Below, one piece after another: positions 49,791 through 64,000 of a DNA stretch of 64,000 nucleotides (position 1 is the first letter of the stretch; every line of letters begins with the position of its first letter). The notes under the pieces were generated by a model that worked only from the letters and a program-made list of their open reading frames with translations, was not told where the DNA came from and made no database searches. The translations under genes and the position numbers were made by a program. This DNA is from an uncultured Faecalibacterium sp. (GTDB taxonomy: Bacteria > Bacillota > Clostridia > Oscillospirales > Ruminococcaceae): the NCBI GenBank assembly GCA_902463235.1, contig CABQER010000003.1, positions 9,297 through 73,296 of the forward strand. Reading direction: 5' to 3'.

Positions 49791-51452
<1,662 letters not shown>

Positions 51453-59628: not shown

Positions 59629-61485
59629 TTACAAAAATGAAAGCTGTTGAACGTCCGGCAAATCGTTTTCAGGTGTGGAATGATTGGCTTTTTTCATCAT
59701 GTTTCCAATGGTTTTTTTGATGGTGGACTTGGTTTCGATCCCTTGCTTGCGCATCTTTGTATCATTGGTGTTTTTTTGAACCGAGCAGATACTGGATTTC
59801 AAGATACGATTGTAGAAGTCCATTGCCATGATATTCGTCCGCTCATTTATATCAATCGTGGACTTTCCAGCATATCGCTGAGCGATATTCCGTGCGGTAT
59901 GAAACATTGATGTTTCATAAATTTTAAGTTTGCTGGCGAAATCTTTTCCATTGCACCGTGAATTTAGGCTGTCTTCAAGAGGAATCAAATTCCCAATAAT
60001 GCCATTTTCAGGGGAATTTGTATCATCCAAGATATGTTCGATCGTGAAGGCAGCACACTGCTTACTGGCACATTTGTATCGTTCAAGGACTTCCAAAACA
60101 ACTTGCACACGTTCCTTGTTTCGGTCATCGTCGTAATACCCAGCGTGATGTGACCACCCTAAATTGGAGAATGCTTTGAGAAAGACTTCTTTGCTGGGAA
60201 GTTTATTCTTTAACTCTGAGATAAAGCATTCCAATGCGGAGTCGGAGTAGTGGTTTTCGAGAATACTGGAATTTTTGTAAATCGCATTTGTTATTTTGTT
60301 CGAATTTTCTTGTCCAATAATGGTATAGCAGATGAAAAAATCATAGAGAAACAGAAGGGTCTCCTCGTACTTCTCTTGGCTGAGGTGACCGAGTTCATAT
60401 TGATGAATTAGACTTAAAAGGATAGGACGAATTTGTTCTTGCCGATGCTTTTTGAAAAAAGCATATACTTTAAATTCAACATTCGAACAGTTAGCAGATT
60501 CCTCAGATTGAGAAGGAGAAAGAAGGCGGTTGTAGTAGATGGACTTCTGATAAATATCGTCAAGAAGCGGAACAGTTGGAATGCCTTTGTTGGAATCACG
60601 AATGAGTTTATAATCGCTGATACCTTCCTGAACAGAGGTTCTATATTTGTGGGTTGCATAATGTTTTACAAAGCGTTCGATGTTGTTACCTAAAAGCGAT
60701 TCGATCTCCGACCAAGTGGTTTTCGCAGTGTCGACATCTCCATCGGGTCTAATGCCTCTTAGAATAAAGTTCTTTAATAGTTCATGCCCTTCCAATGCTG
60801 AGCCGCGAGCGTTTAAAATCTCAAAAATCGTGTACGCATCTTCCTCGGAAGATGCGGTAATATCAACGTATAGCAGATTGTCCGTGATGGCGGTTCGTAA
60901 ATTGAGTAGGACCTGAATTGGAGAAAGAGCAGATTCTTCAATATGTTTATAAATGCTGTTTATGAAAAACACAAAGGCAGCTGCGAGATTCTTGTTGTTT
61001 CGAGAATACTGCTTTACAAGTGCTACGGTTTCAAAACACTTTGCCATATTTGGAGAAATTGAAAAGAGCCCGGTAATAATTCGCTCCAGTGCAATATATT
61101 GCTCAGACTTGATGACCATAGTTTCCTGATTTAAATCATCACGAGTGAACAAATACTGCTTTGTTCCTCGAAATTCGTCGTCAAATTCATAGCAATGAAG
61201 GCAAAAGGCTACACTTGCAAGAAAAATTGTTAGGGAAATAATCCGTTGTTGACCATCTACAATTGTAAAATAGGAGATGCCGTTTTTGCGGTCGTTCTCT
61301 TTGTAAAGAACGATACTTCCGATGAAGTGGGTTGCTTCTTTTCCGGTAGCAACGAGCAAGACATCATCAAATAACTCTTGCCAGTTTCTTTTGTTCCATA
61401 CATACTGTCGCTGGTTTCGGGGTGTTCCATAACAACGCTTGGTGAAAAGGTCGTAGACGTGTTTGTCATCTGCTTCAAAACTCAA
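59629..61485 (-). CDS. DUF262 + DUF1524(HNH) GmrSD-like protein
   Basis: PRNQRQYVW, HFIGSIV, IVDGQQR, FEILNARG, TIEHIL...IGNLIPL...N; AT-rich; TTG start after GAGG. Confidence 0.87.
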   Translation of the reverse strand: MSFEADDKHVYDLFTKRCYGTPRNQRQYVWNKRNWQELFDDVLLVATGKEATHFIGSIVLYKENDRKNGISYFTIVDGQQRIISLTIFLASVAFCLHCYEFDDEFRGTKQYLFTRDDLNQETMVIKSEQYIALERIITGLFSISPNMAKCFETVALVKQYSRNNKNLAAAFVFFINSIYKHIEESALSPIQVLLNLRTAITDNLLYVDITASSEEDAYTIFEILNARGSALEGHELLKNFILRGIRPDGDVDTAKTTWSEIESLLGNNIERFVKHYATHKYRTSVQEGISDYKLIRDSNKGIPTVPLLDDIYQKSIYYNRLLSPSQSEESANCSNVEFKVYAFFKKHRQEQIRPILLSLIHQYELGHLSQEKYEETLLFLYDFFICYTIIGQENSNKITNAIYKNSSILENHYSDSALECFISELKNKLPSKEVFLKAFSNLGWSHHAGYYDDDRNKERVQVVLEVLERYKCASKQCAAFTIEHILDDTNSPENGIIGNLIPLEDSLNSRCNGKDFASKLKIYETSMFHTARNIAQRYAGKSTIDINERTNIMAMDFYNRILKSSICSVQKNTNDTKMRKQGIETKSTIKKTIGNMMKKANHSTPENDLPDVQQLSFL

Positions 61486-62030
61486 TGAAAGTCACCTCTT
61501 TTTCAGTGGATGGATTTGACCATTTGCTAATTAAGTTCATTTTAACCCATGAGAGCCAGAAAATCAACATTAACGCTATGATTTGGAAGTTGCGGTTTAC
61601 CGATGAAAAAACGGAATGGACTGAAAAGCTAATAATATAGAAAAACCAATACTGACTTCTACATAATCGCAAGCGACAGTTATGCGACAGTATGCTAGTG
61701 CAGGCTTCATCTAACGGATGCGGTTTACGGGTTTAGGTGTTCCCAATAAACATTCCGCAAAACGAAATGCCGTTTATATGCTGACGAATTGTTGGCTTAC
61801 GCTACGGAGACTCCTAGGGGACTTTCCAAATTTCAAAGCCATTTTGTAAACCAGACCGTCAGCTTTCAACTTTGACTTGAAACTGGCGGTTATTTCATAA
61901 CCTAGATGATTTTCGAGTTCACAACACCATATCAAACAGGATAGGCTACCTTGTTCTCTATCTTTTTGCCAAAGTTTTCAGCGTGTTTTCTTGCACACTG
62001 CCGAAAGTGGCGTGTTTTCAAAACTTTTTG

Positions 62031-62059
62031 TTGACATGGCTCGATTTTTGTGGTAATCT
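62031..62059 (+). promoter_or_regulatory. sigma70-type promoter with extended -10, pointing into the hairpin array
   Basis: TTGACA (62031)-17 nt-TAATCT (62054), with TG at 62051-62052. Confidence 0.65.
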
Positions 62060-62356
62060 ATCCCAACAATTTAATATAACATATTTACTTAGAGTTCCAG
62101 CTCGGCTCCCGAAGGAGTCGGAGCAAGTTTTTGACTTTCTTATCGCTACATAACGAATCCGAACCAAGGCCATCCCAGAAGGGACGGTCAGGTTCAGGTT
62201 GTTGTGTGGCGATTTTTTATTGCAAAATCAGCAACGAACCTTGAAAACCGCATGACCGTCTGCATGGAATACACGGCGATGACCCCGCAAGGGAGAGCCG
62301 GAAAACGCCGCCGGAAGGGGGCAGGAAAGCCATGCAGGGAGAACGGCGCACCCAAT

Positions 62357-63757
62357 ATCAACTTGTCAAAATGGCCAGTTGATGTGGTGAATGACACAAA
62401 GCGTCATTCACCAGAAAAACCTTATGCGTTACGGCTCACCTCATGTGGACAATTTGTCTACATGAGGTAACCTGTCGCAGCCTAATTCAATGTGTTCAAA
62501 CTGAGCACATTGACTCTGTCCGTGTTACAGCTGACCTCGACTTGACATTTTGTCAAGCCACGGTGAAATTCGGTAAGTGCTGCTTTTCAGTACTTACCAA
62601 ATGACCGTAACACGGTCGCTCTGTGGTGGGTTACGAAAACCGTAACTCACCACTTGGAAGTGGTAAATGGACAAAATGTCCACTTACCACTCAACCATAA
62701 CAGAGGAAGCTTGGTTGGTGGTCATTTTGATCACCAACCAGACAATCGTAACGCTTTACTGTGTAAAAGTGGCTGTTACCATTTTGATAACCGCCACGCA
62801 TCTGTAACGTTTGGGCAAATAATGCTTTTCATTATCCACCACACACCCGTAACAACCAAAGGAGGATTCCTATGACAACAGAACAATGGGAACGCGAAAA
62901 TCAGGACACCTTGATGGAATATTTCATTGATGGCGACCCCAGTGTGCGCAGAATCCAATGTGAATACTGCCGCAAGGTCATCTACACCCAGACCCGAAAC
63001 CGCAAATATTGCAGCTTCCAGACCTGCGGTCACAAGATGCTGAATCTGCGGAAAAGCCTTAAAAAGCGTGCCGACCGTGGAACTTACACCTGCGTCTGCT
63101 GCGGGGAACAGTTCCTACCAATTCGGGCAGATGCCAGATATTGCAACAATGCCTGCCGGCAGAAAGGCTACCGCCAGCGTAAAATAGCTGCACACACTTC
63201 TCTTTGAGGAACTTGATAAAGTTTGTCGAGTTCCTTATCTACGCTCGCTTTTATCCAGTAAAGTGGCACTTCCCAGAATGGGAAGTGCCAAAATACCGTA
63301 ACTCTTAATCGCTCACTCCCAAATCCCCAAAGTGGGAATTTGGGCTGTCATCTGAAATCAGGTTACGCTTTCCGTAACTTGATTTGTAACTCCTGCCGAA
63401 TCAAGTTCCCACTTTGGGAACTTGATTGTAGCCGTATCAAAATCAGGTTGTCAAAATGATAACTTGATTTCATCTGCAACGAAGCCACCGGAGTTATCAT
63501 TTTGAGAACTTCGGCTTTATCTGTTACGCGTCGCGCCCACTCCGTAAAAATCAGGTGGTCAAAATGATCACTTGATTCTACCCGTAACGACTCAAGGTCG
63601 TTGAAAATTAGGTGCCGCACCCGGCACTTGATTTTACCCGTAACAGAATCAGTGGGTCAAAATGGCCCGCTGAAAAAGCCGGACGAGCTGCGGGCAGGGA
63701 TTCGCAAATCTTTGCCTGTCAGCTTGCCAAAATCAACGGGCCAAAATGGCCCGTTGA
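62357..63757 (+). repeat. Array of about 23 heterogeneous hairpins/palindromes with 5-nt A/T-rich loops and interspersed GTAAC motifs
   Basis: Mostly 10-14 bp stems, e.g. AATCAAGTTCCC-ACTTT-GGGAACTTGATT (63399), TGGCACTTCCC-AGAAT-GGGAAGTGCCA (63264), TCAACGGGCC-AAAAT-GGCCCGTTGA (63733); 11 before and 12 after the 62872 ORF. Confidence 0.85.
62872..63207 (+). CDS. Small double zinc-finger protein embedded in the hairpin array
   Basis: GGAGG RBS; CEYC...KYCSFQTC and CVCC...RYCNNACRQKGYRQRK; basic. Confidence 0.8.
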   Translation: MTTEQWERENQDTLMEYFIDGDPSVRRIQCEYCRKVIYTQTRNRKYCSFQTCGHKMLNLRKSLKKRADRGTYTCVCCGEQFLPIRADARYCNNACRQKGYRQRKIAAHTSL

Positions 63758-63907
63758 AGGGAGTCAAGGGGGAACGCCTTACCCAGTGATATGATGCTGT
63801 GCGTCATATCCTACTGGGTATTATCTGGCGCACCGCAGGCGGCAGATTCAGCAGCAAAGCTGCTGCGCACCCACCCCGCCAAGCTGTTGAAATGGAGGAA
63901 TGTCTAT

Positions 63908-64000
63908 CTGAAATTAACACGACACAACGGACGAGCCGGGACCCACGGCACCTATAACCCCAAGCACAATGACCGGAGTTTCAACCTTGTCAACAGTGAG
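63908..64000 (+). CDS. Probable mobilization protein/relaxase (Pre/MobV-like), 5' part only
   Basis: After GGAGG (63894) the frame reads (C)TG-KLTRHNGRAGTHGTYNPKHNDRSFNLVNSE; HNDR recalls the MobV H-N-x-R motif; only 31 codons visible. Confidence 0.55.
   Translation, partial: MKLTRHNGRAGTHGTYNPKHNDRSFNLVNSE

Follow-up and report, generated by a model that had tools for sequence, protein, structure and literature searches.

A genus-restricted array of non-identical hairpins beside a relaxase gene in a Faecalibacterium mobilizable element, a possible module active as single-stranded DNA

A non-coding region next to a relaxase gene in a Faecalibacterium genome is packed with hairpins, which raises the questions whether these hairpins form a real array and what such an array could do for the mobile element that carries it. 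The region is situated near the end of the window, i.e., the stretch of 64,000 nt that was analysed (positions 9297-73296 of contig CABQER010000003.1, assembly GCA_902463235.1, an uncultured Faecalibacterium sp.), and it belongs to an integrative mobilizable element (IME). An earlier examination of the bare DNA letters (the sequence-only reading) had listed about 23 inverted repeats in 62357-63757, which differ in their stems and share a common architecture. A small open reading frame (ORF) for a putative zinc-ribbon protein separates the half-arrays A and B, and array B ends 34 nt before the start codon of the relaxase gene, which is of the Mob_Pre (MOBV) type (Table 1).

All 23 of the listed start positions yielded a hairpin when the region was folded with DNA parameters. 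The weakest were those at 62819 (6 bp, -2.6 kcal/mol), 62357 (-5.1 kcal/mol) and 62541 (-5.6 kcal/mol), and the remaining 20 ranged from -6.4 to -14.2 kcal/mol. A strict scan (at least 8 pairs, at most two mismatches, loop of 3-7 nt) detected 17 hairpins, 8 in 62341-62870 and 9 in 63208-63760, compared with means of 0.22 (maximum 2) and 0.17 (maximum 3) in 300 dinucleotide shuffles of each half. Upon folding as single-stranded DNA (ssDNA) half A reached -115.9 kcal/mol (z = -12.5) and half B -135.5 kcal/mol (z = -12.1), and none of 100 shuffles was as stable. The whole assembly of 1,575,087 bp contained 665 hairpins with at least 10 pairs, or 0.42 per kb; the four hairpin-richest 600-bp windows of the genome (8, 8, 6 and 6 hairpins) were all located in the array region, and the next best had 4. 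The G+C content of the region is 47%, compared with 58% for the genome. The hairpin array is thus real and far above chance, and the observation of the sequence-only reading withstood the shuffled controls.

What is conserved in a unit was determined with 80 unique units (160 arms) pooled from 16 related arrays, with closure of the loop by CA...TG as a selection criterion. A unit is a palindrome of about 27-35 bp, with arms of 11-20 bp, mostly 12-15 bp, round a loop of 3 nt, and its conserved part is the tip, GT(G/T)NNCA-WWW-TGNN(A/C)AC. The loop is A/T-rich and, in these closure-selected units, the closing CA...TG is invariant. In an unselected set of 113 unique hairpins from 12 related arrays CAtttTG was found 23 times, CAaaaTG 22 times, CAaatTG 8 times and CAattTG 6 times. 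Loops of 5 nt had been proposed earlier; these are better read as 3 nt plus the closing A.T pair of the conserved CA...TG. Position 6 outward from the loop is A or T in 93% of the 160 arms, with partial conservation at positions 5 and 7. Further out the arms belong to subfamilies (ATCAAGT..., TGG..., CAATGTG...) or are unique, and they are complementary within the unit throughout; the previously suggested subfamily with AATCA(G/A)GT...ACTTGATT outer arms proved to be real. Within an array the units are separate and non-overlapping, 20-60 nt apart.

The whole array was present at 82-93% identity in seven other Faecalibacterium genomes, and the eight homologous arrays were compared in two alignments (A1 and A2). 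The predicted partners were paired in 90.8% and 93.2% of the cells, compared with 23-53% when the partners were slid, and in neither alignment did any of 500 shuffles attain the covariation score. Pairs that had changed on both sides numbered 10 in A1 and 6 in A2; the count of six, taken alone, was matched by 133 of 500 shuffles and is not significant. Together with the 80-unit pool, this covariation supported the earlier claim of variable stems in a conserved structure with a short motif, the latter being that of the tip. Since the outer arms vary and yet stay complementary, which a protein that binds double-stranded DNA (dsDNA) would not enforce, the comparison suggests that outer-arm pairing must occur within a strand in vivo.

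The units also turn over. Between homologues whole units are present or absent, hybrid units between neighbours occur, and metagenome contigs aligned to the region miss stretches of 37-55 nt, close to the length of one unit, so that the gain and loss of units that had been anticipated for a modular array was indeed found. In orthologous units the loops flip between AAA and TTT in place. Such behaviour might mean that the palindromes maintain themselves with little or no function, spreading in tolerated non-coding DNA by template switching or an unknown enzyme and being corrected arm to arm. This view would also be in line with the facultative presence of arrays, with the confinement of the family to one genus, and with near-copies in other elements, one of which lies in the variable linker of a ParB-like gene where homologues differ by indels. 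However, the strong divergence of the units is unlike a recent burst of copies, the place and order of the array are fixed among elements that are only 82-93% identical overall, and the tip motif is conserved. In addition, there are about 5-20 sites per genome, all in mobile elements, and not hundreds. Self-maintenance was judged to be an unlikely explanation.

Arrays of the same design exist in a second family of elements, in which 8-15 hairpins lie between genes for a CHC2 primase and a D5-like helicase on one side and a canonical Mob_Pre gene (337 aa), Xis and Int on the other. The relaxases of the two array families share 24% identity. Relatives of the second relaxase were surveyed at 80 loci from species-representative genomes, the genus being taken from the record titles. 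At least 4 hairpins within 1.5 kb upstream of mob were found at 8 of 11 Faecalibacterium loci and at 0 of the 69 other loci, at which Mob is 50-93% identical and 5 of which have less than 500 bp of upstream sequence. One locus with a 93% identical Mob has kept the flanks but is devoid of the roughly 800 bp of array between them.

A covariance model built from 50 units (R1) gave a similar distribution. In the window's genome it found 13 sites, i.e., 11 in the array, one at a contig end and a weak one. It matched 59 of 90 other Faecalibacterium genomes and 0 of 9 genomes in other genera of the family. The five complete genomes that were searched contained 33 loci with R1 sites, with 5-19 sites per genome, including seven arrays (at least 3 sites). 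Six of these arrays are situated within 1.3 kb upstream of a Mob_Pre gene, and the seventh is at locus L125, which has the same array and zinc-ribbon ORF without a relaxase and in which RepA_N, a DnaC/IstB-like loader, Xis and Int follow. In the genomes covered the arrays are confined to Faecalibacterium, and elsewhere in the order 13 of 150 genomes had R1 sites, only 1-2 each. R1 can be used to mark array-bearing elements in metagenomes.

Near-copies of single units occur alone in other Faecalibacterium mobile elements. Single units lie inside two ParB-family genes (L107 3599-4543, minus strand, and the ParB_N gene of L122), eight single R1 sites fall in a ParB-like gene at a distance of 1.4-1.8 kb from MOBP-type relaxase genes, and further single sites are found ahead of D5_N or VapE helicase genes. 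These sites bring up the view that the inner dyad GT(G/T)NNCA-N3-TGNN(A/C)AC is an operator or centromere-like site in dsDNA for a dimeric ParB-like or helix-turn-helix protein. An array of such sites would recruit or titrate a host or co-resident protein and in this way serve partition, silencing or hitch-hiking. There is precedent for a parS site inside parB, the arms show partial conservation over their inner 7 bp, above all at position 6, and the arrays adjoin replication modules. However, recognition of dsDNA leaves unexplained why the arms are complementary to 12-17 bp, with compensatory outer changes and a sequence that varies between units, and no DNA-binding gene is common to the arrays. 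A dsDNA site array therefore appears improbable.

The reading that is favoured, tentatively, is that of a host-specific module which is active as ssDNA, resembles a single-strand origin (sso), of which it would be a new and host-adapted kind, and lies at the last-entering end of the transferred strand. In the single-stranded state each unit would snap into a hairpin of 12-17 bp with a 3-nt loop. From its location 5' of mob, the array, roughly 1.4 kb, would enter the recipient as the final part of the transferred strand, with the nick site next behind it, and one primer laid there could copy the whole transferred strand in one run. The stable hairpins would stay free of single-stranded DNA-binding protein (SSB) and recruit a priming factor, of Faecalibacterium or of a helper element, that recognises their tip. 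A large number of units that are not identical would provide redundancy and, at the same time, less recombination between repeats. The hairpins, their compensatory changes, the turnover of units, the location beside mob or rep genes and the confinement to the genus are shown, and we infer the choice of the transferred strand, hairpin formation in transfer, complementary-strand priming and the identity of the reader. The strand was chosen by analogy to the MOBV1 prototype pMV158, for which the mob-coding strand is described as the transferred strand and in which the G/T nick is situated 8 nt 3' of a hairpin (PMC5863519), and it is because of this geometry that the array is placed at the last-entering 3' end. 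In pMV158 the mobilization cassette is flanked by ssoU and ssoA (PMC5737340), and one IME, IMESag-rpsI, is reported to carry an oriT-mob-ssoA cassette, oriT being the origin of transfer (PMC5090054). An sso is described as active only as ssDNA (PMC4595007), and its function as host-dependent and governed by structure more than by sequence (PMC5737340, PMC5090054, PMC4595007). Like the sso of pMV158 (ssoA and ssoU), of IMESag-rpsI and of ICEBs1 (sso1), the array is non-coding, strongly structured as ssDNA and located beside a Mob_Pre/MOBV cassette. The restriction to one genus at a relaxase gene points to a host-specific step in the processing or establishment of the element after transfer. An array at L125 in spite of the missing relaxase fits a function that is needed by every element transferred as ssDNA.

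Several observations weigh against an sso-like role. Known sso are long, imperfect structures, and ssoA contains a conserved CS-6 loop motif, TAGCG(T/A). The array is made up of some 23 short palindromes that are near-perfect and have their tip in common, and TAGCG(T/A) is absent from both strands of 62340-63790, the nearest occurrence being at 62143-62148. An orientation is not evident in the units, as AAA and TTT loops are equally common (22 versus 23), and the stem mismatches have an inconsistent strand bias (G.T versus A.C 13 to 5 in the window, 40 to 25 in its family, and 21 to 25 in the second family). Known sso are described as working in one orientation only (PMC4595007). The array is facultative even within the genus, e.g., neither of the two relaxase genes of this type in genome G114 has one. 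Folding of the regions upstream of mob in other genera (45 of 70 loci) did not reveal a comparable structure, with z values of about +1 to -6, like coding controls; an sso that is always upstream of mob is thus not borne out by relatives in other genera. Single units inside ParB-like genes are not predicted by this role. Furthermore, the transferred strand was assigned by the pMV158 analogy, and the window's Mob matches Pfam Mob_Pre only weakly (E 4.6e-4). Membership in the ssoA family itself was rejected, as the CS-6 motif is absent, the architecture differs and the folded relatives in other genera lack a structured region at this place.

The array-bearing elements have integrases of the Tn916 type or of another tyrosine type, or a serine recombinase (MT836903.1), together with three replication modules. 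Because the same tip serves different relaxases, integrases and replication proteins within one genus, its reader is unlikely to be encoded by the element, and a host or helper factor seems more likely than a protein of the element itself. It is tempting to extend this to a genus-specific hairpin code, in which such a factor reads the fixed tip on ssDNA whatever the stem sequence is, although this more general proposal is doubtful. The reader could be a primase, an SSB partner, a coupling protein or a ParB-like clamp. If the proposal were true, mobile elements would collect non-identical hairpins in order to be accepted, primed or carried in the host. Such an array, read by shape and attC-like in principle, would determine compatibility in conjugative establishment and would represent a new class of cis element.

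The hairpins might also act against host defence, as decoys or buffers on the incoming ssDNA that titrate or block a nuclease or sensor, or that stop exonucleases at the 3' end. The restriction to one genus, the inferred place at the end of the transferred strand and the defence-rich carriers would suit such a role. However, a candidate target is lacking, and with the pMV158 geometry the array would enter last, too late to protect the leading DNA. The sequence offers nothing that would separate a decoy from the sso-like module, and an anti-defence role was given a distinctly low probability.

The spacers between the hairpins bear on another explanation. Between 62200 and 63900 GTAAC occurs 11 times and GTTAC 6 times, compared with 24 and 29 times in the whole window. 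These 17 copies in 1.7 kb contrast with a genome background of about 0.3 per kb for each, so the GTAAC spacer motif that had been noticed in the sequence-only reading is real. In the window (C/T)GTAAC is found 0-13 nt 3' of 8 hairpins, GTTAC follows three others, and the mob-proximal hairpin is without GTAAC. It could be imagined that a hairpin and its downstream G/TAAC form a nick, termination or accessory-protein site of the MOBV relaxase, so that the array would consist of multiple oriT-like or relaxosome sites. Transfer could then start or terminate at redundant sites, or co-resident relaxases could mobilize the element in trans. The 8 hairpins with (C/T)GTAAC mimic the pMV158 arrangement of hairpin and G/T nick (PMC5863519), 6 of the 7 arrays are directly upstream of Mob_Pre, and L125 keeps the array, GTAAC and the zinc-ribbon ORF without a relaxase, as expected for an oriT that is used in trans. 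In contrast, the same tips occur with relaxase clades that are 24% identical and should differ in specificity, the second-family arrays do not share a motif 3' of the hairpins, the hairpin closest to mob has no GTAAC, and a single nick does not need about twenty sites. In addition, a hairpin-free cluster of ten GGTTAC/GTAAC motifs between vapE and xis looks like protein-binding iterons, not nick sites. The MOBV1 oriT of pMV158 is a 41-bp site with three overlapping inverted repeats and a G/T nick 8 nt 3' of IR1. The array has many non-overlapping units over 1.4 kb instead of three overlapping, mutually exclusive inverted repeats in about 40 bp, and by this description it is set apart. Multiple oriT-like sites were regarded as rather unlikely, though somewhat less so than the dsDNA sites.

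The sequence-only reading had named guide or decoy RNAs first among the possible functions; its other suggestions, ssDNA recognition sites and captured protein-binding sites, come near the favoured reading and its rivals. The array would then be transcribed together with the zinc-ribbon ORF and mob, and its hairpins could serve as processing sites, stabilisers, decoys or guides. It is located upstream of and between two ORFs of the same strand, and the stem mismatches in the window are mostly G.T on the plus strand. However, this bias is inconsistent across the families, and A3 and T3 loops are equally common and flip between orthologs, which speaks against guides and decoys. Other elements have different genes after the array. 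A permissive Rfam search of the array returned three hits of 14-16 bits (E 1.6-5.8), compared with gathering thresholds of 40-99, and thus no family was matched. In a promoter consensus scan the plus strand upstream of the array did not have a site better than 9 of 12. Seven promoter-like sites were counted versus 3.2 +/- 1.7 in shuffles, and the two best were on the minus strand inside hairpin tips and were given no weight. A terminator scan did not find a site after any unit; the single terminator-like site within the array is on the minus strand (63627-63612). A structured RNA is thus highly improbable. The hairpins were also rejected as rho-independent terminators, T tracts being absent after the stems.

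Several known systems share traits with the array. Like clusters of integron attC sites, for which the folded single strand is described as important (PMC2727003), it is a series of hairpins with variable sequences that would be read, if at all, by their shape. An attC cluster was rejected, since the array has its conserved part in the tip and near-perfect stems, with 20-60 nt and no cassettes between the units, and Pfam did not reveal an integron integrase. In attC clusters cassettes lie between the sites, conserved motifs are at the stem base, and the imperfect stems have extrahelical bases. Repetitive extragenic palindromes and the mosaic elements composed of them (REP/BIME) are likewise short, taxon-restricted and clustered in both orientations. 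They usually have more than 100 copies per genome and are described as chromosome-wide (PMC2817692); the 13 sites in the window's genome and the 5-19 per complete genome, in mobile elements, led to their rejection. Clustered regularly interspaced short palindromic repeats (CRISPR) resemble the array in that they are serial and non-coding, here again on a mobile defence island. Tandem Repeats Finder gave 0 rows for the array at a minimum score of 30, i.e., no direct repeats, and the units are mutually differing palindromes. CRISPR was therefore rejected, in agreement with the earlier statement that the array is unlike it, and RNA repeats like those of type III antitoxins were rejected for the lack of direct repeats.

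The array had been called undescribed-looking, and this impression has held. Besides the Rfam result, full-text literature searches did not yield a description of such arrays. A survey of conjugative and mobilizable elements of Faecalibacterium from 2025 describes MOBV1 IMEs, and the words hairpin, palindrome, inverted repeat and stem-loop do not occur in its main text (PMC12084326). The hairpin array is apparently undescribed. It would be an ssDNA-active cis element of conjugative DNA processing, with a minority chance of being a new class that is read by shape. The conversion of ssDNA to the duplex after transfer is described as poorly known for integrative elements (PMC4595007), and the array represents a concrete candidate for it.

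Table 1. Positions of the hairpin arrays, their motifs and adjoining features (window coordinates unless L001 is named)
Feature	Position	Strand	Basis or remark
Left 16-bp direct repeat, groEL stop codon/3' end	51437..51452	+	Bounds the element on the left
GmrSD-type restriction gene	59629..61485	-	Pfam; last cargo gene before the array-bearing non-coding region
Hairpin array A, 11 palindromic units	62357..62850	.	Starts 62357, 62387, 62438, 62487, 62541, 62572, 62623, 62659, 62712, 62769, 62819
GTAAC motifs of array A	62467, 62607, 62642, 62748, 62804, 62849		
GTTAC motifs of array A	62428, 62524, 62630, 62775		
111-aa ORF, two CxxC...C...C zinc-ribbon motifs	62872..63207	+	Between half-arrays A and B
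Hairpin array B, 12 palindromic units	63207..63757	.	Starts 63207, 63264, 63318, 63355, 63399, 63440, 63488, 63549, 63604, 63649, 63693, 63733
GTAAC motifs of array B	63298, 63374, 63386, 63584, 63640		
GTTAC motifs of array B	63362, 63523		
Mob_Pre (MOBV-type) divergent relaxase gene, 450 aa, 5' end	63791..64000	+	Continues beyond the window to L001 6143
Right 16-bp direct repeat copy	L001 9480-9495		Equivalent to 68480, beyond the window

The element that carries the array is about 17 kb long, is bounded by 16-bp direct repeats and is inserted at the 3' end of groEL; the contig runs 14.7 kb past the window end. According to Pfam, the gene order is KAP NTPase, Eco57I-type methylase, T5orf172-ResIII, GmrSD, array A, zinc-ribbon ORF and array B, followed by the Mob_Pre relaxase, a VapE helicase, the GGTTAC/GTAAC cluster, and Xis and Int of the Tn916 type. 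The element is an IME with defence cargo, and the mobilizable defence island that had been postulated from the window was thereby recovered. A short way inward from either end CTTACGCCA motifs recur, which may represent arm-type sites of the integrase.

The ten GGTTAC/GTAAC motifs of the cluster are present in both orientations around an A/T-rich stretch (L001 7505-7700, corresponding to window positions 66505-66700). The cluster, which shares the 5-mer with the hairpin array, looks like an iteron-type origin or operator. The zinc-ribbon ORF had weak matches to Pfam zf-CGNR (E 0.0078) and PHROG 1271 (E 1.4e-6), and no NCBIfam hit. Because the motif travels with the array and this ORF even in the absence of Mob and VapE, the zinc-ribbon protein is the most likely candidate for a GTAAC binder. 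In the vapE gene (L001 7170-7240) a 13-bp direct duplication (GATCTATGCCTTT twice) shifts the frame, and an ORF of 364 aa continues as an ORF of 102 aa; the homologue in MT836903.1 is intact and has 450 aa. The VapE helicase of the window's element is probably broken.

The stretch 61983-62340 before the array contains a promoter-like site, TTGACA-17-TAATCT (about 62033-62061), a purine-rich segment, and two G+C-rich stem-loops (about 62100-62140 and 62160-62220) with T runs behind them. It was kept in 6 of 7 homologous loci and could be a small RNA or a leader.

MT836903.1 was the one match in a search of a phage collection, and a plasmid collection did not yield an array match with blastn in distant mode. 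The unannotated record (8309 bp, "UNVERIFIED: Bacteriophage sp.", human faeces) is labelled as a phage but has the core of a mobilizable element, with the array, the zinc-ribbon ORF, VapE and a large serine recombinase. It adjoins a Maff2 gene, an ORF of 494 aa in the relaxase position is without a Pfam match, and the record ends do not overlap.

The hairpin in L107 (4130-4164) is a near-perfect palindrome of 35 nt in the ParB-like gene of MOBP-type mobilizable elements. It is located in a variable linker just before the helix-turn-helix, and the homologues differ by indels, some with adjoining deletions. Downstream of uvrB and uvrA in the window's own genome (contig C40 7917-8064, locus L106), two neighbouring hairpins of the family are immediately followed by the end of the contig. 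Hairpin arrays may break short-read assemblies, and counts from draft genomes are therefore lower bounds.

A longer module is additionally present, in two or three copies, in the second-family arrays at L026 (2250-3500) and L050 (2550-3500). Its 18-bp hairpin, GCTATGTACG...CGTACATAGC, precedes GAAAA and a conserved spacer of about 45 nt, and the module contains TAGCGA. One 18-bp GCTATGTACG...CGTACATAGC hairpin is kept at the array-less locus L031, and the module may be a true oriT or an ssoA-like element.

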